Of a stretch of 64,000 nt of DNA, positions 1-9,961 are shown one piece after another; the first letter of the stretch is position 1; each line of letters opens with the position of its first letter. The stretch is from Acidobacteriota bacterium (lineage in GTDB: Bacteria > Acidobacteriota > UBA6911 > RPQK01 > JAJDTT01), in assembly GCA_965116695.1 (NCBI GenBank), contig OZ220706.1, positions 770,415 to 834,414 on the forward strand, given 5' to 3'. Made by a program: the position numbers and the translations under genes. The notes beneath the pieces are model-generated. The model was not told where the DNA came from. It saw only the letters and a program-made list of their open reading frames with translations, and ran no database searches.

Positions 1-1175
1 AGCTGAACGAGCTGCATGGCAAGCCCTCCGGCGACGGAATCCGCACCTATCAGGGTTGTCACTGGAGCTTCAAGAAATACGGGAAATCGGGGATCCCCGT
101 GAGCGAGCTCTTTCCTCACATCGCCACCTGCGTGGACGAACTGGCCATCGTTCGCTCCATGGTCTCCAACTTCCCGCTGCACCCGCGCGGCAACATCCTG
201 TTCCACACCGGCCGCAACGTCGGGGGTTACCCGAGTCTGGGATCCTGGATCACCTACGCTCTGGGGAGCGAGAACAAGAACCTGCCCGGGTACGTCCTTC
301 TCCACCCGGAAGCCACGTCGATCCCGCCGGGAGGGTTGGAGAACTTCTCCAACGGCTTCCTCCCCGCAACCCACCAGGCGTTGCCCGTGAAGGCGGAGGG
401 GACACCCATCGAAAACCTGGTCCCGGCCGACAAGAGTGCCATCCAGAACACCAAGTTGTCGGCGCTGCTGGACCAGGATCGGCAGTTTCTGGCCGACGCC
501 GGCAGAAACGACGCCATCGAGTCGGCCATCCGAAACTACGAAATGGCGTACCGGATGCAGTCCCTGGTTCCGGACGTGCTGGACCTGTCCCGCGAGACGG
601 AGGCCACCAAGAGGCTCTACGGGCTGGATACCTCCAACAAGGACCAGCGAAACTATGCCCTGCAATGCCTCCGGGCGCGGCGCCTCATCGAGTCGGGCGT
701 CCGTTTCGTGGAGGTGACTCCGCCGGTCCTGTTCGGCGCCACCAACGGCACCTGGGACCAGCACTCCAACTTGAAGAAAGGACATGAGGGGAACGCCCTG
801 GTGGCGGATCAGTCGGTGGCCGCCCTGATCAAAGACCTCAAGTCCAGGGGAATGTTGGACGAGACGCTGGTCATCTGGGGCACCGAATTCGGCCGCACGG
901 TGGACACCGGAACCAACGGAGACGGGCGCGACCACCTGGAGACGGCCTTCACCATCTGGATGGCGGGAGGCGGGGTCAAGGGCGGGACCGTGTATGGCCA
1001 AACCGACGACATCGGCAAGACGGTGGTGGAAAACAAGACCACCGTCCATGACCTGCACGCCACCATCCTGCACTTGCTGGGGCTGGACCACGAACGCCTG
1101 GTCTACCGTTTCGGGGGCCGCGACGAGAGTCTGACCGACGTCCACGGCCGCGTCGTCCACGATATTCTGGCCTGA
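1..1175 (+). CDS. DUF1501 family protein (sulfatase-like fold), 5'-partial; reading frame open to window start
   Basis: Frame 3 is open from nt 3, with no upstream stop. The C-terminal GGGVKGG motif and the RDH/DGRDHL region are typical of DUF1501 (Planctomycetes/Verrucomicrobia/Acidobacteria). TGA stop at 1173-1175. Confidence 0.7.
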   Translation, partial: LNELHGKPSGDGIRTYQGCHWSFKKYGKSGIPVSELFPHIATCVDELAIVRSMVSNFPLHPRGNILFHTGRNVGGYPSLGSWITYALGSENKNLPGYVLLHPEATSIPPGGLENFSNGFLPATHQALPVKAEGTPIENLVPADKSAIQNTKLSALLDQDRQFLADAGRNDAIESAIRNYEMAYRMQSLVPDVLDLSRETEATKRLYGLDTSNKDQRNYALQCLRARRLIESGVRFVEVTPPVLFGATNGTWDQHSNLKKGHEGNALVADQSVAALIKDLKSRGMLDETLVIWGTEFGRTVDTGTNGDGRDHLETAFTIWMAGGGVKGGTVYGQTDDIGKTVVENKTTVHDLHATILHLLGLDHERLVYRFGGRDESLTDVHGRVVHDILA

Positions 1176-1214
1176 AATCGGGGCTGGCCGGTCGGCCGTC
1201 ATCCAACGTCACAC

Positions 1215-2153
1215 ATGCCCCGTCACCGCCCCCTGCTGGCCGACAACATCCTGGAACTGATCGGCAACACGCCGCTGGTTCGGATTCAGCGCCTGACCCG
1301 CTCCGGCTCGGCCGAGCTCCTGTTGAAGCTGGAGTCCCTGAACCCCTCCTTCAGCGTCAAGGACCGGATCGCCTACGCCATGCTGAAGCAGGCCCAGGAC
1401 AAAGGCAGGATTCAACCGGGAAAGACCGTCATCGTCGAACCCACCAGCGGCAACACCGGGATCGGCCTGGCCATGGCCGCGGCCGTCATGGGGTACCGGT
1501 TGATCCTGACCATGCCCGACACCATGTCCATGGAACGCAGGCGGGTCCTTCAGGCCATGGGCGCCGAACTGGTCCTGACCCCCGAGGTCCGAGGGATGAC
1601 CGCCGCCATCGACAAGGCGGAAGAACTGGTGAGCCGGCTTCCCGACGCCTACATGCCGCAACAGTTCAACAACCCGGCCAATCCCCGGGTTCACCGCCGC
1701 ACGACCGCCCAGGAGATTCTGGAGGCGACGGACGGGAGGTTGGATGCGTTCGTTGCCGGCGTCGGAACGGGGGGCACCATCACGGGAGTGGGCGAGGTCC
1801 TGAAACAGGAATTGGGAGACGTGCTGATCGTCGCCGTCGAGCCGGCGGACTCCCCCGTGCTGGCGGGAGGAGAACCGGGTCCCCACGAGATCCAGGGAAT
1901 CGGCGCGGGATTCGTCCCGTCGGTCCTGAATCGCGACGTCATCGACGAGATCATCCACGTCGACTTCGAGGACGCCCGGATCGTCACCCGGGACCTGGCC
2001 CGCAAGGAAGGGATCTTCGCGGGCATCTCATCCGGCTCCAACTGCTGGGCCGGGCTCCAGATCGCCCGAAGGCTGGGAAAAGGCGCCCGCGTCGTCGCCA
2101 TGGTCTGCGACCTGGGAGAACGCTACCTGAGCCACCCCGTGTATGCCGAGTAG
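1215..2153 (+). CDS. cysK: Cysteine synthase A (O-acetylserine sulfhydrylase), PLP-dependent
   Basis: 312 aa. PLP-lysine motif SVKDR, glycine-rich TSGNTG loop, and full-length similarity to CysK/CysM family. Confidence 0.9.
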   Translation: MPRHRPLLADNILELIGNTPLVRIQRLTRSGSAELLLKLESLNPSFSVKDRIAYAMLKQAQDKGRIQPGKTVIVEPTSGNTGIGLAMAAAVMGYRLILTMPDTMSMERRRVLQAMGAELVLTPEVRGMTAAIDKAEELVSRLPDAYMPQQFNNPANPRVHRRTTAQEILEATDGRLDAFVAGVGTGGTITGVGEVLKQELGDVLIVAVEPADSPVLAGGEPGPHEIQGIGAGFVPSVLNRDVIDEIIHVDFEDARIVTRDLARKEGIFAGISSGSNCWAGLQIARRLGKGARVVAMVCDLGERYLSHPVYAE

Positions 2154-2228
2154 TCGTTATTCCCCAAGATCCTCCGCGCGAGTAGGCAACACAACGAAAC
2201 CTGACCTGCCCCATTCCAGAAGAAACCG

Positions 2229-5126
2229 GTGAAGACAGGCCTGCCGGATCGGTTCACTGTAGAGAGTTCGTGGTTCCATCGGGTTTTCTTTTCGGGATAT
2301 TCGCGCCTGACCGTCGTGGATGGGGCCCTTCGTTTACACAATTCCCGGACGCGCAAGGGAGTCGAGATCAACCTCGCCCACATTGATCATATTGCGAAAG
2401 TTTCGGGCTGGTTTGGCCGTTGCCGACTCAGGATTCGCTCGAATGCCAGAGACAAATTTTCGATTGGAGGGTTGGATGCGATTTCCGCAGACCGGGTAGT
2501 CAAAGCCGTTCAATTCGTAGCAGCTCAACGGGCTTCGGAACTGGCCCCGAGATTGTTGGAATTCGACCAGCGAATTCAGGCAAATTTGCGTGGCCGGGAA
2601 TATTTTCGTTGCTCTTCCGCAGATGCGCTTCATGCACAAATCGAAACCTTGGTGCAGGAAGGAAACCGGGAACTCGTCCGCCTCCACTTGCCGATACCAG
2701 CAATTCACGCCTTGGTTCGTCTCCGTGAATTTAGGCGTCGAGATCGATTGGAAACGGCTCGCGAGCGCGGGAACTCGAAGTTTGTCAGGGCGCAGGCAGG
2801 CGCTGTTCGGACCGCGGCCTCCGGAGTATTGGAGCACAAACTGACGGACGAACAGGCACACGCGATTGCCGCGGACGAGGATGTTACTCTCGTATTGGCC
2901 GGCGCCGGAACCGGAAAGACTGCGGTAATCGCCGGAAAAATCGCCTATCTCGTCCGCCACCAAGAAATCGATCCCAAGGAAATCCTCGTATTGGCCTTCA
3001 ACCGGAAAGCCGCCGCCGAGATCCGGGACCGCCTGCCAAGTGATCTCCAAGGTGCATGCGTCAGCACGTTTCATGCCTTCGGGATGCGCATTCTGGGGGA
3101 GGCATCAGGCAGGAAGCCGCACGTCTCGATTCTGGCCACCGACGGCGCGAAACTGGCTCAGACCATAGACGGGATTCTTAAGGATTTGCTGACGTCGAAG
3201 CAGCACGGAGATCAGGTGACGGAACTCCTGACCCTGCATAGAAACCCCTACAGATCCCCGTTCGATTTCAAGACAGCTAATGACTATTTCGAGTATGTCC
3301 GCGTTTGTGAGCATCGAACCTTAAGCGGAGACTTGGTCAATAGTCACGAAGAGGTCCAGATTGCCAACTTCCTCTCCATGAATGACATCAAGTTCCAGTA
3401 TGAAAGACCGTACCCGGTAAACACGGCCGACAAACGGCACCGGCGATACATGCCCGATTTCTACCTTCCCGACTACAAGATCTACATCGAACACTTCGCG
3501 CTCAACGAGGAAGGTGACGCTCCGCCTTTCTTCCGCAACTATCAGGACAGTGTCGAATGGAAGCGCAATATTCACAGGCGCTATGGCACCAGGTTGATTG
3601 AGACCTATAGTTGGCAGGCCCGCCGTGGAATTCTACTCCGGGAACTCAAGAAACTTCTTGAACACAACGGTGTAGATTTCCGCCCGGTTTCCATCGACCG
3701 CCTGCTTGACCAGCTCAGATCGATCCTGGAGTCATGGCTGTCCAGATTGATTCTCTCCTTTCTCAAGCACGTCAAAACGAGCATTCTGTCAGCGGATGAC
3801 CTGATCCGCCGCGCAATGAAATCCTCCGACAAGTTTCGGAGTTTAGCTTTCCTGAAAGTATTCGAAGCCGTTCGGGTGCGTTATGAGAAGAGACTCACCA
3901 AAGAAGGCGCCGTCGACTTCGAAGACCTGATCAACGAGGCCGCCCGGCAAATTCGCGATCTTCGCTCCTTTGCGCAGTATCGCTATATCCTCGTCGACGA
4001 GTTTCAAGACATCTCCACCAGCCGAATGGCGCTGCTGACAGCCCTCAATAAACCCGAAACCGCTTACTTTCTGGTCGGTGACGATTGGCAATCAATCTAC
4101 CGTTTTGCAGGCAGCGACGTGGGCCTGGTTCGTGGCTGTGGAGAGTACCTTGGCCACGTCCGTGAACATTGTCTGAGCAGGACCTTCAGATATGGCAGTC
4201 GCGTGGCCGATCCCACGTCGGAATTCGTGCAGCGGAACCCCGAACAAACCCAGAGAAGCCTTCGTGCCAATAGCGATGAACTCGATATGGGTATCACGGT
4301 GGTTGCATCCAAGGAACCGTCTCAGGGTGTCGAGCGCGCACTCGATGACATCCTGGAACAGGTACGAACTCGGGACCAAGGTCGCAGTCCGGGACACGGC
4401 AGGAATGATTCGTCCGTACTGGCACTCGGTCGTTACAGAAGCAGCGTGAATGCCATAAGAGAAGTTGCCAAGTCCAGACGCATGAGCGTCGACTTCAGCA
4501 CGGTCCACAGCGCGAAAGGGCGCGAAGCCGATTTTGCTCTCGTGCTCGATCTTAAGGACGACAAGATGGGTTTTCCTTCACAAATCGACGACGATCCTTT
4601 ACTCAATCTTGCATTGCCCCCGATGCGAGGGCATCCCTTCCCCCATGCGGAAGAACGCCGCTTGTTTTACGTTGCGGCAACCCGGGCCAAGCGAGCCGTC
4701 TACTTGATTGCTGATCAGATCGATACTTCAAGTTTCGTTCGGGAACTGGTCGAGGACTACGAGGGTATTCGTCGAATTGGTAATCTGGCCCGGTACTCAG
4801 CACCAGACTGTCCTCGCTGTGGGGGGTATCTCGTCGAATCAAGGACTGGCAAGACTCTTCGTTGTGTCAACCATCCGATTTGCAAAAATCAGGCGCCACG
4901 GTGCGAGATCTGTAAACAAGGATATTCCCTATCCGACGGACAAAGAGCCAAGTGCTCCAACCAACATTGCGAATCCTCGCCAAGGGCGTGTCCCAGTTGT
5001 AAATTCGGGATTCTCGTCTTGCGAAGTGGCCCATATGGACAATTCCTGGGATGTAGCGCGTACTGGAATGAACCCCCATGTACATATAAAGAAAGGCTGC
5101 CACCGAATCGTTTTTCTGGAAGGTGA
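2229..5126 (+). CDS. UvrD/Rep-family SF1 helicase (HelD/helicase IV-like) with embedded PD-(D/E)xK / Vsr-like endonuclease-like module and C-terminal tandem C4 zinc ribbons
   Basis: 965 aa, GTG start. Walker A LAGAGTGKT, motif II VDEFQD, motif VI-like VHSAKGREADF. Internal segment YMPDFYLPDYKIYIEHF resembles a restriction-endonuclease-like fold. C-terminal CPRCGG...C...C and CPSC...C clusters resemble topoisomerase-type zinc ribbons. Local GC (~52%) is clearly below flanking DNA. Confidence 0.8.
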   Translation: MKTGLPDRFTVESSWFHRVFFSGYSRLTVVDGALRLHNSRTRKGVEINLAHIDHIAKVSGWFGRCRLRIRSNARDKFSIGGLDAISADRVVKAVQFVAAQRASELAPRLLEFDQRIQANLRGREYFRCSSADALHAQIETLVQEGNRELVRLHLPIPAIHALVRLREFRRRDRLETARERGNSKFVRAQAGAVRTAASGVLEHKLTDEQAHAIAADEDVTLVLAGAGTGKTAVIAGKIAYLVRHQEIDPKEILVLAFNRKAAAEIRDRLPSDLQGACVSTFHAFGMRILGEASGRKPHVSILATDGAKLAQTIDGILKDLLTSKQHGDQVTELLTLHRNPYRSPFDFKTANDYFEYVRVCEHRTLSGDLVNSHEEVQIANFLSMNDIKFQYERPYPVNTADKRHRRYMPDFYLPDYKIYIEHFALNEEGDAPPFFRNYQDSVEWKRNIHRRYGTRLIETYSWQARRGILLRELKKLLEHNGVDFRPVSIDRLLDQLRSILESWLSRLILSFLKHVKTSILSADDLIRRAMKSSDKFRSLAFLKVFEAVRVRYEKRLTKEGAVDFEDLINEAARQIRDLRSFAQYRYILVDEFQDISTSRMALLTALNKPETAYFLVGDDWQSIYRFAGSDVGLVRGCGEYLGHVREHCLSRTFRYGSRVADPTSEFVQRNPEQTQRSLRANSDELDMGITVVASKEPSQGVERALDDILEQVRTRDQGRSPGHGRNDSSVLALGRYRSSVNAIREVAKSRRMSVDFSTVHSAKGREADFALVLDLKDDKMGFPSQIDDDPLLNLALPPMRGHPFPHAEERRLFYVAATRAKRAVYLIADQIDTSSFVRELVEDYEGIRRIGNLARYSAPDCPRCGGYLVESRTGKTLRCVNHPICKNQAPRCEICKQGYSLSDGQRAKCSNQHCESSPRACPSCKFGILVLRSGPYGQFLGCSAYWNEPPCTYKERLPPNRFSGR

Positions 5127-5179
5127 TCGAATCAGGCCTGCACTGACACGGTTGCCGCACGACCATTACCGCGATTAGA

Positions 5180-6540
5180 TCAATTGCGATTCTCTGCTTC
5201 GCGAGTCTCCAACCTGGACAGGACCCGCTTCCGAACCCAGGCCGGGTCCCACCACTCGATGGGGTTCACCTGGGTTCCATGCAGAACCATGGTGAAGTGC
5301 AGGTGATCGCCACCCGCCAACCCGGTCTGACCGGTCCGGCCCAGGGATTGCCCCTTCCGAACCTCATCTCCCACTCCCACGTCGAAACGGCTCAGGTGAG
5401 CATACAGCGACTGCAGTCCCAGACCATGGTCCACGACCACGGTGTTGCCGTAGATTCCCAGGTAGTCGGCAAAGATGACGACGCCGTCGTTGGAGCACTC
5501 CACCGGGGCCATAGCCAGGGAGGCCAGATCGAAGCCCAGGTGGGTCTGCTCGTCCACCTTCTTCCCCCCGTAGAAGTAGGAGCGGAAATCCGCGAAGGAC
5601 GATTCGACCTGCGAGTTGGTCAACTGTAGAAACTCTTCGGTCCAAAGAGGGACGGCGGCGGTCTGGGAAGCCATCTCTGCAATCTGCCGGTTGTTGGCCC
5701 GGCGCAACGATCCATTCACCTCCAGAAAGGTCTCCAAGAGATCGGAGGTTTCCCGGACCTGCTCGCTGCGCTCCAGGATGGCCGGCAGGACCCGCTCCAT
5801 GAAGCGGTCCGAAATATTAAGGTTTCGTTCTCGGAAACGCCCCGGAAACACCTTCTTCCAAAAGTTCTCCCGGCCTCGGTTTCCGGCTGGATCCTGGGCC
5901 CAGACCGTCATGGCGGTGTCTCTGTCCTGGTCGTGCCCCAGAGCGAAAAGACAGATGTAGACGCCTTCTTCCCGGGAGGGAGCGGGATATCCGGCGTAGA
6001 TCCGGTCTCCCACCTGGATTCCGCTGGAGTCGACCGGTTCGGACACCCGGTAGCGGACGGCGGCGGATCCGCCCTGCCGGATGTAGTGCTGATTGGAGAG
6101 AACCTCGATTCGAGGAGGCGTCCGGTCCAGACGGAAGTCCTGCTCCTCCACCGTTTCCCGTGACCAGAGTCCCAGACTCGCGTGGTCCTCCACCTGCATC
6201 TCCAGCGTGAATGGACCTTCCTTCACGTCTTCACGCGGCGCCACATCCGAAAGACGGACCGCAAGACGCCGCTCGAGAGTCCCGTCCGACCAGAGGAATC
6301 CCGCCTCGTCGAAACTCTCTTCGTGCACCACGAGCTCTCTTCCCTGCTGGCGGAGCCGCAGCCGCAGGGACCTGAGCCCCCGGCCCTGGTCTCTGATCTC
6401 GACCTGGATTTCCGTCTTGGGTCCCACGATTCGGGGCGGATCGATCCAATGAACTTCGGGAGGCGACGAGTCCCAAGTGGCGACGGCCCAACCGGCCGCA
6501 ACAGCCACCAGCAGAACCAAGATCAACGCCAACGGTTTCA
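5180..6540 (-). CDS. M23 family metallopeptidase (LytM domain) with N-terminal signal/TM anchor
   Basis: C-terminal HxxxD...GxTGxxxGxHLHF (LHF-type) M23 signature. Start trimmed to internal Met (MKPLALILVLLVAV hydrophobic N-terminus); the longer ORF to 6607 is also possible. Confidence 0.8.
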
Positions 6541-6671
6541 TGCCCGAATCCTCGCCGTCATCATCCCATAGAAGCCTTACAGAAGCCCTCTTGCGGGTCA
6601 ACGCCATCCGGCTCGATTATGGCCGTCTGGTCCAATTGACACCGTCTGACCCCCCGACTAAACTCCCCGCC

Positions 6672-7874
6672 ATGAGTGCTCAGGAACGATCAGGATTGAA
6701 GATTTCACAGCGGCTCATGCAGCTTCAGGAGTCGGCGACCATCGCCGTCAGCAACCGGGCGGCCGAGTTGCGCCGGGCGGGAGTCGACGTGGTGAGTCTG
6801 GGAGCCGGAGAACCCGATTTCCCCACTCCCGCTCACATCCGGAAACACGCGCTGGATTGCATTGAAGCGGGAGAGACCAAGTACGCGAAACCCGCGTCGG
6901 GAGTTCCCGAAGCCAAGGCGGCCGCGGTCGAGAAACTTCGCCGGGAGAACGGGTTGGAATATTCTCCTTCCCAAATTCTGGTCACCGTTGGCGGCAAGGA
7001 AGGCCTCTGGCTCGCCTTCGCCACCCTCCTGGACCCTGGAGACGAGGTCATCATCCCCGCGCCCTACTGGGTTTCGTACCCGGAACAGGTGAAGATCGCC
7101 GGCGGAGTGCCCGTCTTCGTGAGCGCGACGGTGGATGCGGACTTCAAGATCACGCCCCAGCAGCTCCGGGACGCGCTGACACCTCGAACCGCGGCGGTCA
7201 TCTTCAACTCTCCCAGCAATCCCAGCGGGACCGTCTACAGTCCGGAGGAGACGGACGCGTTGGCCGAGGTGCTGGCCGATCGGGACGACGTGGCGGTCAT
7301 CAGCGACGAGATCTACGACCGGCTCCTCTACGGCGGCCGGACCTACAAGAGCTTCGCGGCCACGTCCGCCCACGCCTATGAGCGGACCCTGACCTTCAAC
7401 TCCATGTCCAAGACCTATTCCATGACCGGATGGCGCATCGGTTACGTGGCGGGGCCCCAGGAGCTGATCCGCAACCTGGGCAAGCTCCAGTCCCAGACCA
7501 CCAGCGGCGCCGCAACGTTCACCATGCACGCCATGGCCGCGGCCCTCACCGGCAATCAGGACTGCGTCGAAGAGATGCGGTCCGAGTTCGAGCGGCGCGC
7601 CAAGGTTTTGCACGCCCGGCTCAATGCCATTCCCGGAGTGGTCTGTCCCGAACCGGCCGGGGCCTTCTACGTGTTTCCCGACGTTTCGGCGACCTATTCC
7701 CGCCTCGGGGTCTCCGGTTCGGTGGAGTGGACCACGCGGCTGCTGGGGGAAGCGCACCTGGCCGTGGTGCCCGGCGCCGCTTTCGGGCTGGACAGTTGCG
7801 TCCGGCTCAGCTTCGCCACCGGCATGGACGTGATCGAGGAGGGCCTGGACCGATTGGAACGGTTCCTGGGCTGA
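6672..7874 (+). CDS. aspC: Aspartate/aromatic aminotransferase, class I/II PLP-dependent
   Basis: About 400 aa from the internal ATG at 6672; the longer ORF would overlap the convergent peptidase gene. Motifs NPSGTVY and SKTYSMTGWRIGY (PLP-Lys) are typical of AAT-like aminotransferases. Confidence 0.85.
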   Translation: MSAQERSGLKISQRLMQLQESATIAVSNRAAELRRAGVDVVSLGAGEPDFPTPAHIRKHALDCIEAGETKYAKPASGVPEAKAAAVEKLRRENGLEYSPSQILVTVGGKEGLWLAFATLLDPGDEVIIPAPYWVSYPEQVKIAGGVPVFVSATVDADFKITPQQLRDALTPRTAAVIFNSPSNPSGTVYSPEETDALAEVLADRDDVAVISDEIYDRLLYGGRTYKSFAATSAHAYERTLTFNSMSKTYSMTGWRIGYVAGPQELIRNLGKLQSQTTSGAATFTMHAMAAALTGNQDCVEEMRSEFERRAKVLHARLNAIPGVVCPEPAGAFYVFPDVSATYSRLGVSGSVEWTTRLLGEAHLAVVPGAAFGLDSCVRLSFATGMDVIEEGLDRLERFLG

Positions 7875-7915
7875 ACGGTTCCGGAGTTTCCGGAACGATC
7901 CCCCGGACGTGGAGC

Positions 7916-8230
7916 TCAGCCGTCCCAGTCCTCGTCCGCCGGAAACACCGACACAGCCTGCTCCACTACTACCTCGCCGTCGAACCAGTTTCGGGTCGCG
8001 TGCTTCCAGCGCAGAAAGTGGGGCGCCCGGCGGTGAGCTTCCAGGGCCGCCTCGTTCCGGTAGACTTCATAGAGAAAGATCCGGTTCGGGTCGTGCGGAT
8101 CCTCCAGCACGTCGAATCTCAGGCAACCCGGCTCGTCCTGGACCGAGTGAAGGGCATCGTCTAGCATGGCTTCCATGAAAGCCTCCCGATGCGGAGGCTG
8201 AATCCGGATCGTGACCAGAAGAGCGATCAT
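7916..8230 (-). CDS. Antibiotic-biosynthesis-monooxygenase (ABM) domain protein
   Basis: About 104 aa from internal Met (MIALLVTIRIQP...). ABM/ferredoxin-like dimeric alpha+beta barrel pattern; the upstream extension looks non-coding. Confidence 0.6.
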   Translation of the reverse strand: MIALLVTIRIQPPHREAFMEAMLDDALHSVQDEPGCLRFDVLEDPHDPNRIFLYEVYRNEAALEAHRRAPHFLRWKHATRNWFDGEVVVEQAVSVFPADEDWDG

Positions 8231-8288
8231 TGCATGTACTCCTTTTTCAATTCTCCAGTCTGCGATTGTCCGTAGCGAGAGCCGTAAA

Positions 8289-9863
8289 ATGACCAACCCG
8301 ATCGCCGTTTTCAACGTCCTGCTTCTTTTGGCCGCGCCTCTCACCCAGCCCCTGGCGGCTCAGGCGCTGGTGGTGGGAGACCAGAAACAGTTGTTCATCG
8401 ACCACCGCTTCATCGAATCCAGCGACGGAATCACCCTCCGCATGAACCCTCCGTACCAGACGGGTGAACCTCTGGTCGTGGTGGACCAACCCTGGGAAGA
8501 GGGTGCGAATATCCACGTCTATTGCAGCGTGATGAAGGAAGAGGGTCCCGAGGGGGTCCGTATCCGCCTCTGGTACGACCTGTATACCGGGGCCGGCCGG
8601 CCCGGGCAGGGCTTTCGGGCCCTGTGCTACGCCGAGTCGAAGGACGGCATCCGATTCCGAAAGCCGATCCTGGGGCTGGTGGACAAGGACGGATCGCGGG
8701 AGAACAACCTGGTCATGCCCACCGACCTTTCGGTGATGACCGTCGGCGGCGGATCAGTCGCCAGAGACGACAATCCTGCAACGCCGCCCGAGAAGCGGTA
8801 CCGGTCCTGGTCCAAGCTCTACACCATCCCCGGAACGCGCAAGGGGGGGAACGCCTTCTGGTACTCGGAGGACGGGCTCCGCTGGCACCTGGAGGAAACG
8901 CTCCCCACGGGACTGCGGGCCGCCGACACACAGCCGAACTGGTTCTGGGATCCCACCATCGGACGCTATCGCGGCTACAGCCGGGAAGTCCATCCCCGCA
9001 TGGTGGGGTACAACGAGTCGGACGACATGACCCACTGGGAGAACTTCGAGATCGTCCTCCTGCCCGATGCCCGGGACCTGGCGCCCCTGGTCGATTTTCT
9101 GCCCCGGCGCCAGCAGTCGCGCGCCTCCGAGAAGGCCCACCAGGTCGAGACCGTCTTCGGACCCGGCTACACCGTCGTCGGTCCGTTGGCGTTGGATTTC
9201 TACGGAACGGGCGTCTTCCGCTACGCCGAGGCCCAGGACGCCTACTTCGCCATGCTCCCTATCTACTATCACTACCGGCCTATGCATCCGACGACGGCGG
9301 ACGTTCAATTGGCGGCGAGCCGCGACGGCCGGAATTTCCTACGCCTGGGCGAGCGCCAGTCGTTCCTGCGCCTGGGTCACGCCGGCAGCTTCGGGTCCAA
9401 GTGGGTCTGGGGAATGCCGCGCCCCATCCGGATGGGCAACGAGATCTGGATCTACTACGTGGGGATCAACTGGGACCACGCCAGCCGCGTCGACCCCGAT
9501 CCCGGCGGGCGCCGGTCCGCCGTTTCCAGAGCCGTCCTCCGGCTCGATGGGTTCGTCTCTGCCGACGCCGGCTACCGGGGCGGCTGGCTGGCCACGCCTC
9601 TCATCCGTTTTGCCGGCAGCAGGCTGGAGTTGAACCTGGATACCAGCGCCGGCGGCGAAGCACTGGTGGAGATCCAGGACCCTCAGGGCCGGCCCGTTCC
9701 AGGGTTCGCATTGGAGGACGCCGACCCCATGAACGGAAACAACGTCGCCTTCCCCGTTTCGTGGCAGGGACGAAGCGACGTGTCGGCGCTGGCGGGCCGG
9801 GAAGTCCGGCTTCACATCAAGCTCAGGAATTCCAAGCTCTACGCCTTTCAATTCGTCCGCTAG
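8289..9863 (+). CDS. Secreted BNR/Asp-box repeat beta-propeller protein (sialidase/glycosidase-like) with C-terminal beta-sandwich; paralog of 20690-22348
   Basis: Signal peptide MTNPIAVFNVLLLLAAPLTQPLAAQA. Asp-box motifs SKDGIRF, SEDGLRW, SRDGRNF. The QLFIDHRFIE N-terminal block and ...KLYAFQF C-terminal block are shared with the 20690 gene. Confidence 0.7.
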   Translation: MTNPIAVFNVLLLLAAPLTQPLAAQALVVGDQKQLFIDHRFIESSDGITLRMNPPYQTGEPLVVVDQPWEEGANIHVYCSVMKEEGPEGVRIRLWYDLYTGAGRPGQGFRALCYAESKDGIRFRKPILGLVDKDGSRENNLVMPTDLSVMTVGGGSVARDDNPATPPEKRYRSWSKLYTIPGTRKGGNAFWYSEDGLRWHLEETLPTGLRAADTQPNWFWDPTIGRYRGYSREVHPRMVGYNESDDMTHWENFEIVLLPDARDLAPLVDFLPRRQQSRASEKAHQVETVFGPGYTVVGPLALDFYGTGVFRYAEAQDAYFAMLPIYYHYRPMHPTTADVQLAASRDGRNFLRLGERQSFLRLGHAGSFGSKWVWGMPRPIRMGNEIWIYYVGINWDHASRVDPDPGGRRSAVSRAVLRLDGFVSADAGYRGGWLATPLIRFAGSRLELNLDTSAGGEALVEIQDPQGRPVPGFALEDADPMNGNNVAFPVSWQGRSDVSALAGREVRLHIKLRNSKLYAFQFVR

Positions 9864-9961
9864 CGTGGTGGTATGAAAATGCGGTCGGGAGTGATATATC
9901 AGGGAGGACAGGGCCGGCCCGGATTCGGGGCCGGAGCCGCCGTTCGGAAGGGAGTTCCAGG

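Follow-up and report, generated by a model that had tools for sequence, protein, structure and literature searches.

A candidate stand-alone helicase-nuclease of the helicase IV lineage, acquired between cysK and an M23 peptidase gene in Acidobacteriota

A single gene in a window of 64,000 nucleotides from an Acidobacteriota genome encodes a protein of 965 residues that is most likely, as predicted from its domains, a self-contained, ATP-driven 3′→5′ helicase-nuclease. One polypeptide joins four parts, i.e., a PH-like N-terminal domain of the helicase IV type, an SF1A ATPase motor, a restriction-endonuclease-fold domain nested in that motor and three Cys4 zinc ribbons at the C-terminus. The gene is foreign and dispensable: it is a single-gene indel polymorphism at an insertion hotspot, present in some of the closely related Acidobacteriota and missing from others. 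The reading preferred here, which is held tentatively at a probability of roughly 0.45, is that of a dispensable helicase-nuclease from the helicase IV lineage, gained by horizontal transfer, which works on its own and destroys invading or aberrant DNA rather than taking part in core chromosomal repair. The features of the locus are listed in Table 1. A protein identical to the 965-residue product is present in the public databases (P0001).

Table 1. Features of the helicase-nuclease gene and its junctions (window coordinates).
Feature	Residues	Position	Strand	Basis
Left cassette junction, from the cysK stop codon up to the helicase gene		2154..2228	.	
Whole gene, helicase IV-family helicase-nuclease (965 aa)		2229..5126	+	ORF list; GTG start and stop codon included
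PH-like beta-sandwich of the helicase IV N-terminal domain, predicted	~9-100	2253..2528	+	AF2 model, Foldseek
Helical part of the helicase IV N-terminal region, predicted	~101-203	2529..2837	+	AF2, Pfam, hhalign, BLASTP
Walker A / helicase motif I, AGAGTGKT	224-231	2898..2921	+	Translation; invariant in 54 homologues
Expanded domain 1B with insert	~308-575	3150..3953	+	BLASTP versus HelD; Pfam UvrD-helicase span
Nested PD-(D/E)xK core, Vsr / T7 endonuclease I-like, predicted	~365-470	3321..3638	+	Profile, AF2, Foldseek, conservation
Rest of SF1A motor, motifs II-VI, domains 1A and 2A, short 2B	~576-845	3954..4763	+	
Helicase motif II, DEFQD	590-594	3996..4010	+	Translation; invariant in homologues
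Three Cys4 zinc ribbons	861-885, 892-914, 921-951	4809..5081	+	Pfam Zn_ribbon_Top1; conserved Cys
Right junction, spacer and altered 3′ end of the convergent M23 peptidase gene		5127..5200	.	

Domain Organization

The motor is that of an SF1 helicase of the UvrD family, as the initial annotation had proposed from the motifs AGAGTGKT and DEFQD. Both motifs were located, Pfam assigns UvrD-helicase to residues 205–632 and UvrD_C to residues 747–828, and UvrD and PcrA are the PDB matches of the motor. From the NCBIfam collection, the model of E. coli helicase IV (NF008276) is the best match with 339.8 bits, below its equivalog cutoff of 543, and the term "helicase IV-like" that had been applied to the protein thus named the correct comparator. 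E. coli HelD (b0962) indeed shares a homologous N-terminal domain and a colinear SF1A core, including the short 2B, at 33–34% identity; in BLASTP, residues 542–840 align with HelD 389–673 at 34% identity (E = 2e-49). By homology, the 3′→5′ polarity is probably common to both proteins. The UvrD-helicase match spans 428 residues yet uses just 261 model positions, which points to a large insert in the motor. This is in line with the BLASTP alignment, in which HelD 302–388 stands opposite residues 308–541, leaving approximately 147 extra residues in the window protein. The two proteins therefore differ in that the window protein has an additional nuclease fold of this size in domain 1B, together with a tail of approximately 125 residues that carries the three zinc ribbons. 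HelD has neither, and a remnant is not detectable in it (hhalign E = 0.19).

The N-terminal domain had been described as of unknown type. Instead, profile comparisons and the structural model indicate that residues 1–203 are a divergent Helicase_IV_N domain, predicted to consist of a PH-like sandwich followed by helices. The AF2 model, with a pLDDT of 90.5, shows seven strands and a capping helix, and helices are found at residues 84–202. A Foldseek search of the PDB matches the sandwich to the PH domains of Rtt106, SSRP1 and TFIIH-p62 (probability 1.0, E = 5e-4). The Pfam family Helicase_IV_N (PF12462) is not matched at E ≤ 1 by the window protein's own sequence; it is matched by 9 of 15 aligned family members (best E = 1.4e-6), and a precomputed match exists for 15 of the 120 homologues listed. 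Moreover, the N-terminus of the family is colinear with E. coli HelD 1–210 over 161 columns (hhalign E = 0.0067), and residues 137–307 align with HelD 124–301 in BLASTP.

At the other end of the protein, twelve cysteines form three clusters (861, 864, 879, 885; 892, 895, 909, 914; 921, 924, 942, 951), and all of them are invariant or near-invariant in 54 homologues. Zn_ribbon_Top1 (cutoff 32) matches two stretches of this tail, scoring 38.4 bits in the complete protein and 44.6 bits when the tail is searched alone. The first reading of the sequence had recognized the topoisomerase-like type of these Cys4 clusters correctly, but had counted two where three are present. The first cluster also bears a weak resemblance to the Pfam family DNA_ligase_ZBD.

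A Nuclease Fold Nested in Domain 1B

Judging from profile searches and the predicted structure, the insert in domain 1B adopts a restriction-endonuclease-like fold akin to those of Vsr and T7 endonuclease I and carries a putative E/D/E metal-binding triad. A fold of Vsr/DUF559 type had been suspected around YMPDFYLPDYKIYIEHF (nucleotides 3447–3497, residues 407–423), and this segment does lie inside the nested nuclease fold. Searched against the PDB, the insert profile finds T7 endonuclease I at E = 7e-4, and E375, D410 and E421 align with E20, D55 and E65 of that enzyme. The core is modelled with a pLDDT above 90 and has the alpha-beta-beta-beta-alpha-beta order expected for the fold. The top Foldseek matches in the PDB are Vsr (1cw0, probability 0.99) and I-Bth0305I (0.98), with weak E-values, the best being 8e-3. 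Among the viral structures of BFVD, 59 matches at E ≤ 1e-3 are labelled as restriction, homing, VSR, DUF559 or DUF2726 endonucleases. Endonuclease I proteins also occur among the viral structural matches of the insert, and a Holliday junction resolvase family is found among the PHROG hits.

Pfam had been expected to recover UvrD-helicase, UvrD_C and a topoisomerase ribbon, all of which were found, and also Vsr, DUF559 or NERD, none of which is called on the window protein. Phage_endo_I falls short of its cutoff (15.3 versus 29.1 bits), and none of the Pfam nuclease families scores above threshold. In the PADLOC collection, three models are homologous to the insert, i.e., PDC-S68, PDC-S69 and HEAT_CxxC_PDDEXK (E = 1.6e-13, 1.8e-11 and 7e-7). 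What these proteins have in common with the window protein is the nuclease module only, which is C-terminal in models of approximately 1200 and 290 residues, and they are candidate defence proteins rather than validated systems.

Acquisition at the cysK–M23 Site

The low GC content of the gene, taken by the initial annotation as a sign of acquisition, contrasts with its neighbours as described, although the GC content is 54.3% (GC3 59.7%) and not the reported value of approximately 52%. The rest of the window has a GC content of 62.2%, and the neighbouring genes have a GC3 of 0.75–0.87. The same difference is seen in all four orthologous loci measured, with a GC3 of approximately 0.59 for the helicase versus 0.74–0.87 for the flanks. 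In five genomes, i.e., that of the window, L001, L002, L003 and L009, the helicase gene is flanked by cysK and the M23 peptidase gene. In six others, cysK abuts the M23 gene and the helicase is absent (L005, L007, L008, L010 and the more distant L012 and L054). The absence of the gene from the site in these six relatives, together with the low GC3 kept in the orthologues, argues for an acquired gene, as had been suggested. The M23 neighbour proteins are 85–89% identical among species in which the helicase is patchily present. The site is used by other elements as well, as illustrated by an IS element in L004 and an integrase and a transposase in L006.

The junctions can be followed on both sides of the gene. 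On the left, the sequence departs from the REP-like spacer of the empty site from the first base past the cysK stop codon. On the right, the M23 protein ends in ETREAENRN in the window, L001 and L003, and in ETPGE at the empty sites and in L009, which retains the REP-like spacer. No flanking repeats were found around the inserted cassette.

Comparison with Known Helicase-Nucleases

AddA, RecB and AdnAB also combine a UvrD-like SF1A motor with a PD-(D/E)xK nuclease in one polypeptide, and a similar logic, in which the motor feeds the nuclease, would be expected for the window protein. In these enzymes, however, the nuclease is a C-terminal domain of the RecB family on a tether, whereas that of the window protein is Vsr/T7 endonuclease I-like and nested in domain 1B. 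The NCBIfam models of AddA and RecB score 56–80 bits versus cutoffs of 696–861, the C-terminus of the window protein consists of zinc ribbons and has no nuclease, and no partner gene for AddB, RecC or RecD is adjacent.

A second group consists of Nhi, Hna, HmaA and Hhe, which resemble the window protein as single-gene, accessory fusions of a helicase and a nuclease of the restriction-endonuclease superfamily, associated with mobile elements or genomic islands (PMC11232893). Nhi, Hna and HmaA are solitary proteins that have been validated experimentally as defences (PMC11232893). Nhi has approximately 610 residues and combines an HsdR-like nuclease at its N-terminus with an SF1 helicase of the DUF2075 type; the SF2 helicases Hna (~840 aa) and HmaA (~1150 aa) carry their nucleases at the C-terminus, and the annotation of Hhe is that of a DUF4011 domain-containing protein (PMC11232893). 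The hallmark Pfam domains of these four proteins were not found in the window protein. For Nhi, there is no DUF2075 match, Viral_helicase1 reaches 16.8 bits (cutoff 21), and the window protein, at 965 residues, has its nuclease nested rather than N-terminal; the proposed Nhi likeness is rejected because both the helicase family and the position of the nuclease differ. Hhe was likewise rejected, as DUF4011 is not matched and AAA_11 (15.3 bits) and AAA_12 (18 bits) both remain below cutoffs of 27 bits. Hhe has an Upf1-like AAA_11/AAA_12 helicase and a C-terminal Vsr-like nuclease. The helicase IV core, the nested nuclease and the topoisomerase-type zinc ribbons are found in the window protein and in none of Nhi, Hna, HmaA and Hhe.

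Family Neighbourhoods and Biological Role

The nuclease-bearing helicase IV family is large, unnamed and unstudied. It numbers 914 clusters, counted at 50% identity with a score of E ≤ 1e-30 against the insert profile; its members come from bacteria and haloarchaea and are frequently plasmid-borne, and none of the models in Pfam, NCBIfam and PADLOC is dedicated to it. Across the family loci compared, there is no conserved partner gene. A methyltransferase or other partner for distinguishing self from non-self is absent. The cysK and M23 neighbours are also conserved in genomes without the helicase. Near plasmid relatives, DUF262/GmrSD-like genes, a second UvrD helicase with an AAA ATPase, an Abi protein, a ubiquitin-like cluster (multiubiquitin/ThiF/DUF6527), toxin-antitoxin pairs and a type I restriction-modification system are present. 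These plasmid relatives amid defence genes, the nuclease matches to PDC-S68 and PDC-S69 and the existence of validated solitary systems such as Nhi, Hna and HmaA lead us to lean slightly towards a role in defence against phages or plasmids over one in DNA repair.

Possible, at about the weight of one reading in three, is that the protein is an accessory repair or recombination helicase with a structure-specific nuclease, acting on the cell's own stalled forks, gaps and broken ends as a one-protein analogue of AddAB/RecBCD or of fork- and junction-cleaving enzymes. The closest characterized relative, E. coli helicase IV, is a weakly processive 3′→5′ helicase (PMC12448304), and T7 endonuclease I, to which the insert is closest in sequence, is a branched-DNA resolvase, to which the resolvase family among the PHROG hits can be added. 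Genes for RNase T/DnaQ-like exonucleases and UmuD/UmuC-like proteins lie near relatives on a Rhizobium plasmid, a Methylotuvimicrobium plasmid and the IMG/VR contig L117, and such neighbourhoods fit repair as well as defence. In the high-GC genomes L057 and L058, the GC of homologues of approximately 51% identity is native and their neighbours are housekeeping genes, among them uvrC, enolase and GAPDH, and the lack of a self/non-self partner fits repair too. However, the gene is dispensable, and species whose M23 neighbour proteins are 85–89% identical differ in whether they carry it; its site is a hotspot where IS elements and an integrase are found as well, its GC is foreign in the lineage of the window, and several plasmid relatives reside among recognizable defence genes.

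A further explanation is considered rather improbable: the nested fold may be catalytically dead and serve as a DNA-binding or structure-recognition module that enlarges domain 1B, leaving a plain helicase or translocase with extra DNA-binding domains. T7 endonuclease I is a free-standing enzyme with a lysine at position 67, whereas in the window protein the equivalent, canonical (D/E)xK lysine position is taken by F423, so that the nested nuclease could be inactive. F423 is nearly invariant and is replaced by tyrosine in the Vibrio and Acinetobacter plasmid copies; the adjacent H422 is a tyrosine in one of three aligned plasmid relatives. Inactivated PD-(D/E)xK domains that serve in binding are well known, and the silence of the Pfam nuclease models is consistent with such a domain. 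Against this stands the conservation of the acids equivalent to those that bind metal in T7 endonuclease I. E375 (helix 1), D410 (strand 2) and E421 (strand 3) are invariant in 54 homologues and are retained in plasmid relatives at 31–35% identity, which argues for selection on catalysis. Moreover, K445 and H449, in the next helix, are invariant in the 54 close homologues, and K445 is also retained in three plasmid relatives. Migration of the lysine to another structural element has been documented in active members of the superfamily, and K445, R446 or H449 may stand in for the missing residue.

Two other assignments carry hardly any weight. That the protein would be a GajB-type Gabija helicase, or a component of another known multi-gene defence system with partners nearby, is very improbable: many PADLOC GajB models and a model of a DRT-associated helicase do match (E ~1e-38), but the "GajB-like" character proposed earlier probably comes down to generic UvrD similarity, as the GajB models score at most 129.6 bits, spread over three segments with helicase motifs, versus 339.8 bits for helicase IV, and the full protein has no PADLOC match beyond such generic helicase similarity. 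With cysK and M23 as neighbours that persist where the helicase is missing, no adjacent GajA/OLD-family gene and no conserved neighbour, membership of Gabija at this locus is refuted in practice. Least credible of all is an RNA-polymerase-recycling motor of the HelD/HelR type known from Bacillus and Actinobacteria; the zinc ribbons of topoisomerase I are able to contact RNA polymerase and weak NCBIfam matches exist (HelD_BACSU 33.4 bits, HelR 17.5 bits), but these scores are an order of magnitude under the curated cutoffs (419 and 750, respectively; 419–1100 overall) and the N-terminal domain belongs to the helicase IV type and not to the HelD type that inserts into the RNA polymerase channel.

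Proposed Mechanism and Implications

For the preferred reading, a stand-alone helicase-nuclease that destroys invading or aberrant DNA, the following course of events can be proposed by analogy with characterized proteins. The zinc ribbons would bind single-stranded DNA, like the homologous ribbons of topoisomerase I, and help to load the protein on single-stranded tails, gaps or forks. The motor would then translocate 3′→5′ at the expense of ATP, as E. coli helicase IV does. The nuclease in domain 1B, placed beside the DNA path according to the known SF1A layout, would cut the DNA that is threaded or unwound by the motor, and the PH-like N-terminal domain would likely be a regulatory or partner-binding module. 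The likely targets would be replication intermediates and ends of phages or plasmids. The outcome would be a one-protein counterpart of the helicase-nucleases of the AddA/RecB type or the Nhi/Hna type.

A wider proposal, which is speculative and on present evidence doubtful, is that the whole family forms a widespread and unrecognized system for immunity or against mobile elements, which consists of a single protein, occurs in both bacteria and haloarchaea and is often carried on plasmids and at insertion hotspots. In such a system, the ribbons and the PH-like domain would sense the replication intermediates of invaders, which are rich in single-stranded DNA, and the motor would drive the nested nuclease. 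If this were true, E. coli helicase IV, whose function in the cell has been obscure for decades, would be related to an enzyme of defence or genome policing but lack its nuclease.

Domain architecture of the helicase

The helicase gene starts with GTG, and a protein identical to its product is already held in public collections (P0001). The Walker A and DEFQD motifs and the segment YMPDFYLPDYKIYIEHF, quoted in the initial annotation, are all found in place in the translation. The best curated match is the DNA helicase IV family (NF008276, 339.8 bits), in agreement with the earlier comparison to helicase IV; the PcrA, Rep and UvrD models score about 125–146 bits. As the equivalog cutoff of 543 bits is not reached, the protein is, judged by sequence, a homologue of helicase IV and not an equivalog. 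Pfam calls UvrD-helicase, although merely 261 model positions are used over its span, as well as UvrD_C and, over its cutoff, Zn_ribbon_Top1. In a BLASTP alignment with HelD from E. coli, residues 137–307 pair with HelD 124–301 and residues 542–840 with HelD 389–673. The intervening 234 residues face 87 in HelD, giving an insert of about 147 residues in domain 1B of the SF1A motor. The C-terminal ~125 residues have no counterpart in HelD.

The approximately 200 N-terminal residues, initially described as a domain of unknown type, are related to Helicase_IV_N (PF12462). This model is matched by 9 of 15 family members (best E = 1.4e-6), and hhalign places the N-terminus colinear with that of HelD over 161 columns (E = 0.0067). 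The AF2 model of the domain (pLDDT 90.5) has a seven-stranded sandwich with a long capping helix, followed by more helices, and its top PDB matches are PH domains (probability 1.0, E = 5e-4). Helicase_IV_N is predicted with high confidence to begin with a PH-like β-sandwich, resembling the PH domains of Rtt106, SSRP1 (FACT) and TFIIH p62; no description of its fold was found in the literature examined. At the C-terminus, three Cys4 units are present instead of the two counted originally, with all 12 cysteines fully or almost fully conserved across 54 homologues. A search of PDB sequences with this tail gave no significant match.

Coordinates of features in the window and in related loci
Locus	Feature	Nucleotides	Residues	Remark
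Window	Helicase ORF	2229–5126 (+)		965 aa
Window	Helicase_IV_N	2253–2837	9–203	predicted to begin with PH-like sandwich
Window	UvrD-helicase (Pfam)		205–632	
Window	Walker A, AGAGTGKT		224–231	translation
Window	YMPDFYLPDYKIYIEHF		407–423	translation
Window	DEFQD		590–594	translation
Window	UvrD_C (Pfam)		747–828	
Window	Insertion hotspot	2154–2228 and 5127–5200		cysK–M23 spacer
L004	Insertion hotspot	9400–11620		cysK–M23 spacer
L005	Insertion hotspot	9398–9585		cysK–M23 spacer
L006	Insertion hotspot	9350–13100		cysK–M23 spacer
Window	M23 C-terminus	5180–5200 (−)		ends in ETREAENRN
Window	Second lower-GC patch	11250–12450		about 0.56
Window	284-aa ORF	11559–12413		
L147	Long haloarchaeal helicase gene and neighbours	6235–10848		Halorhabdus tiamatea plasmid pHTIA
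L061	Second UvrD-type helicase nearby	2572–7308		Acinetobacter plasmid
L150	Second UvrD-type helicase nearby	961–5839		V. parahaemolyticus plasmid
L148	RNase T/DnaQ-like exonuclease nearby	5286–10611		Rhizobium sp. AB2/73 plasmid
L060	RNase T/DnaQ-like exonuclease nearby	5078–10391		Methylotuvimicrobium plasmid
L117	RNase T/DnaQ-like exonuclease nearby	3819–10550		IMG/VR
L066	Relative adjoining GTA cluster	252–10697		IMG/VR

A nuclease-fold domain nested in the motor

A profile of the insert, for which 17 family members were used, hits T7 endonuclease I in the PDB (3cae, 2pfj, 1m0d; E = 7e-4 to 2e-3). The catalytic residues E20, D55 and E65 of this enzyme align with E375, D410 and E421, and K67 with F423. 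In the AF2 model of residues 328–505, the core has a pLDDT above 90 and an alpha-beta-beta-beta-alpha-beta order. Foldseek ranks Vsr (1cw0, probability 0.99) first among PDB structures; further hits are the Vsr-like homing endonuclease I-Bth0305I (probability 0.98), Toxoplasma mitoribosomal proteins and other PD-(D/E)xK enzymes, with weak E-values (best 8e-3). Predicted viral structures yield 59 matches at E ≤ 1e-3 (best 2.9e-6), labeled restriction enzyme, homing endonuclease, Endonuclease I, VSR endonuclease, DUF559, DUF2726 or Holliday junction resolvase. The segment is additionally matched by PHROG endonuclease and resolvase families and by the PADLOC candidate models PDC-S69, PDC-S68 and HEAT_CxxC_PD-DEXK.

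Across 54 homologues with about 50% identity, residues E375, D410, E421, H422, W444, K445 and H449 never vary; in plasmid relatives of 31–35% identity, the acidic triad and K445 are kept, while H422 can be Y. The nuclease-like insert proposed earlier therefore stands as a Vsr/T7-endonuclease-I-like fold by profile and structure searches, but no Pfam nuclease model passes its threshold on the protein sequence. We regard the insert as a true domain of the restriction-endonuclease fold, of the Vsr/T7 endonuclease I kind, whose metal-binding triad is intact and whose lysine arrangement is non-canonical. From sequence and model, it is likely to be catalytically competent. A multiple alignment hinted that HelD residues ~302–388 are a degenerate remnant of the insert; this was rejected (hhalign E = 0.19, 14 columns).

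This helicase joins in a single chain an SF1A motor of the helicase IV type, an endonuclease fold nested within it that carries a conserved acidic triad, three zinc ribbons of the ssDNA type and an N-terminal PH-like domain; it has no obligatory partner gene. What is established for SF1A helicases, for the zinc ribbons of topoisomerase I and for PD-(D/E)xK enzymes suggests how it may work. The zinc ribbons would bind ssDNA and load the enzyme onto tails, gaps or forks, upon which the motor would run 3′→5′ on ATP. The nuclease in domain 1B would lie beside the DNA path and cut threaded or unwound DNA, and the N-terminal domain may regulate the enzyme or recruit partners. We consider it fairly probable that the nuclease is active and coupled to the motor.

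The cysK–M23 site

The gene has a GC content of 0.543 and a GC3 of 0.597, compared to a GC of 0.622 for the remaining window and a GC3 of 0.75–0.87 for neighboring genes. The contrast noted initially is real, with a GC content of 54% rather than about 52%. Relatives of the M23 peptidase were sought in one genome per species, after which the flanking genes were placed by tblastn. In the window, L001, L002, L003 and L009, the helicase lies at the site where cysK and M23 converge; the L003 contig ends inside the helicase, leaving cysK out of view. The site is empty in L005, L007, L008 and L010, with the cysK stop about 160–190 bp from the M23 stop, as well as in the more distant L012 and L054, where cysK is about 70–100 bp from M23. 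In L004 it contains a DDE transposase, and in L006 a tyrosine integrase and, behind it, a DruA-N/DDE_Tnp_1 transposase adjoin M23. Helicase presence does not track M23 similarity to the window, as the positive L009 has 85% M23 identity and the negative L004, L006 and L010 have 88–89%. Helicase GC3 is 0.585–0.597 in all four orthologous loci measured, with flanks of 0.74–0.87, and none of these is a syntenic copy with native GC. The absence of the gene from the site in relatives and the low GC3 kept in its orthologues bear out the acquisition proposed earlier.

GC-rich REP-like palindromes fill the empty spacers in L005, L007, L008 and L010; an example of these arrays is GGCGACAAGAAAGTCGCC. Two junction types occur. 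The cassette takes the place of the spacer and of the final M23 codons in the window, L001 and L003, where M23 ends in ETREAENRN. L009, which has the helicase and a REP-like spacer, keeps the ETPGE terminus of the empty sites. As the M23 ends differ, there are two right-hand junctions for one cargo gene. Neither notable direct or inverted repeats nor a target-site duplication was found at the junctions, and promoter-like and terminator-like sites were not above chance.

Within this uncultured Acidobacteriota lineage, the cysK–M23 spacer is a hotspot for insertions; its cargo here is a single accessory gene, the helicase, acquired by horizontal transfer. The locus represents a clean natural case of one-gene cargo insertion between two convergent housekeeping genes. 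Elsewhere in the window, the 284-aa ORF in a second lower-GC patch matches in length and relative place an ankyrin-repeat gene called in the syntenic L001, and may be another acquired gene.

Distribution of the family

At E ≤ 1e-10, searching with the full-length protein gives 2622 database matches. More than 100 show about 50% identity, about 98% coverage and an identical Pfam set; these relatives come from Acidobacteria and Chloroflexi MAGs and are named solely 'UvrD-helicase domain-containing protein'. Among cluster representatives at 50% identity, the insert profile alone finds 3629 with E ≤ 1e-3, of which 914 reach E ≤ 1e-30, and most of the best 150 are ~940–970 aa long with the insert at residues ~320–500. 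Moreover, 85 plasmid records contain the insert, spanning Proteobacteria, Bacteroidota and haloarchaea; all features annotated under these matches are UvrD/HelD-type helicases. In the high-GC genomes L057 and L058 the gene has native GC and housekeeping neighbors, and in L063, a further Acidobacteriota MAG, its GC once more lies below that of its flanks. No dedicated model for the whole architecture exists in Pfam, NCBIfam, PADLOC 2.0 or PHROGs, and a full-text literature search found no description of a helicase IV core with nested nuclease and ribbons. The family is abundant and uncharacterized, and the window gene is an ordinary member rather than a unique oddity.

Haloarchaeal megaplasmids encode longer UvrD-type proteins (1537 aa) with the same nuclease insert. 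On pHTIA, the gene adjoins DEAD/DEAH and SNF2 helicase genes and TnpB; other long proteins of this type are found on Halalkaliarchaeum and Natribaculum plasmids.

Biological role

Defense-gene surroundings were judged from about 15 inspected neighborhoods. Alongside a V. parahaemolyticus plasmid relative lie two DUF262 genes, a second UvrD helicase and an AAA ATPase, alongside a Vibrio sp. plasmid relative an abortive-infection protein, an endonuclease and a 1491-aa ATPase, and alongside an Acinetobacter plasmid relative a multiubiquitin/ThiF/DUF6527 cluster. Toxin–antitoxin pairs and a type I restriction subunit also occur next to plasmid relatives. Around the ~50%-identity relatives inspected, there is no conserved partner gene. 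Because of the indel polymorphism at the hotspot, the plasmid relatives beside defense genes, the homology of the nuclease to PADLOC candidate models and the existence of validated solitary helicase-nucleases, i.e., Nhi, Hna and HmaA (PMC11232893), our main reading is a role in defense against invading or aberrant DNA, with a probability of about 0.4–0.45.

Two plasmids carry a second UvrD-type helicase within a few kb of their family copy: a different, 1130-aa protein with a sigma-70 factor gene in L061, and a 652-aa protein with an AAA ATPase gene in L150, which may form a Gabija-like pair.

Alternatively, the protein could serve in accessory repair or recombination, which we hold to be possible on several grounds. 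It descends from helicase IV, whose 3′→5′ unwinding is weakly processive (PMC12448304), the nearest sequence relative of its nuclease is a branched-DNA resolvase, and in L057 and L058 it is a resident gene of native GC. In addition, an RNase T/DnaQ-like 3′-5′ exonuclease lies 1–3 kb from relatives of roughly 31–37% identity in three unrelated replicons (L148, L060 and L117), two of which have UmuD/UmuC-like genes nearby; dnaQ and helD have been grouped as DNA-metabolism genes on a plasmid (PMC8554961). These loci may represent a module of several genes that the window lacks; no RNase T-like exonuclease is found near the helicase there. A ~460-aa protein is encoded directly upstream in two of the three replicons, with Endonuclea_NS_2 in L117.

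A phage-encoded gene, as the 253 IMG/VR relatives (up to 38% identity) could imply, is not convincing: on IMG/VR contigs of at least 20 kb, 45% of relatives lie within 5 kb of a contig end, compared to 26% expected, in the sole case near an end that was inspected (L066), a host gene borders a gene-transfer-agent (GTA) cluster, and the GenBank phage matches are short, unannotated 'Bacteriophage sp.' contigs. The end bias and the GTA flank suggest that the IMG/VR relatives are boundary or host genes. In L066, and likewise in L068, L070 and L113 from IMG/VR, relatives of 37% identity directly adjoin GTA clusters (GTA_TIM, Phage-tail_3, Rcc01698_C). These relatives are probably alphaproteobacterial, and GTA adjacency probably explains many 'viral contig' matches at contig ends.

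Relation to known helicase-nucleases

Helicase-nuclease fusions are central to double-strand-break repair, as in RecBCD and AddAB, and to recently validated anti-phage systems, i.e., Nhi, Hna, HmaA, Hachiman and Gabija. The window protein resembles AddA/RecB in working logic, as a one-protein version, and Nhi/Hna as a one-protein helicase-nuclease, without being a member of either group. On hallmark domains and curated cutoffs, membership of Gabija, Nhi, Hhe, AddA and HelD(Bsu) was rejected, and the earlier labels 'GajB-like' and 'Nhi-like' are not supported. Unlike in the known fusions, the nuclease is nested in a helicase IV-type domain 1B and accompanied by topoisomerase-type ribbons and a PH-like N-terminal domain. 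The protein thus represents a different way to build a helicase-nuclease fusion. As the family is large and phylogenetically broad and has no model of its own, a single study combining biochemistry with phage challenge could give function to thousands of genes, and perhaps shed light on the helicase IV lineage, which is poorly understood.
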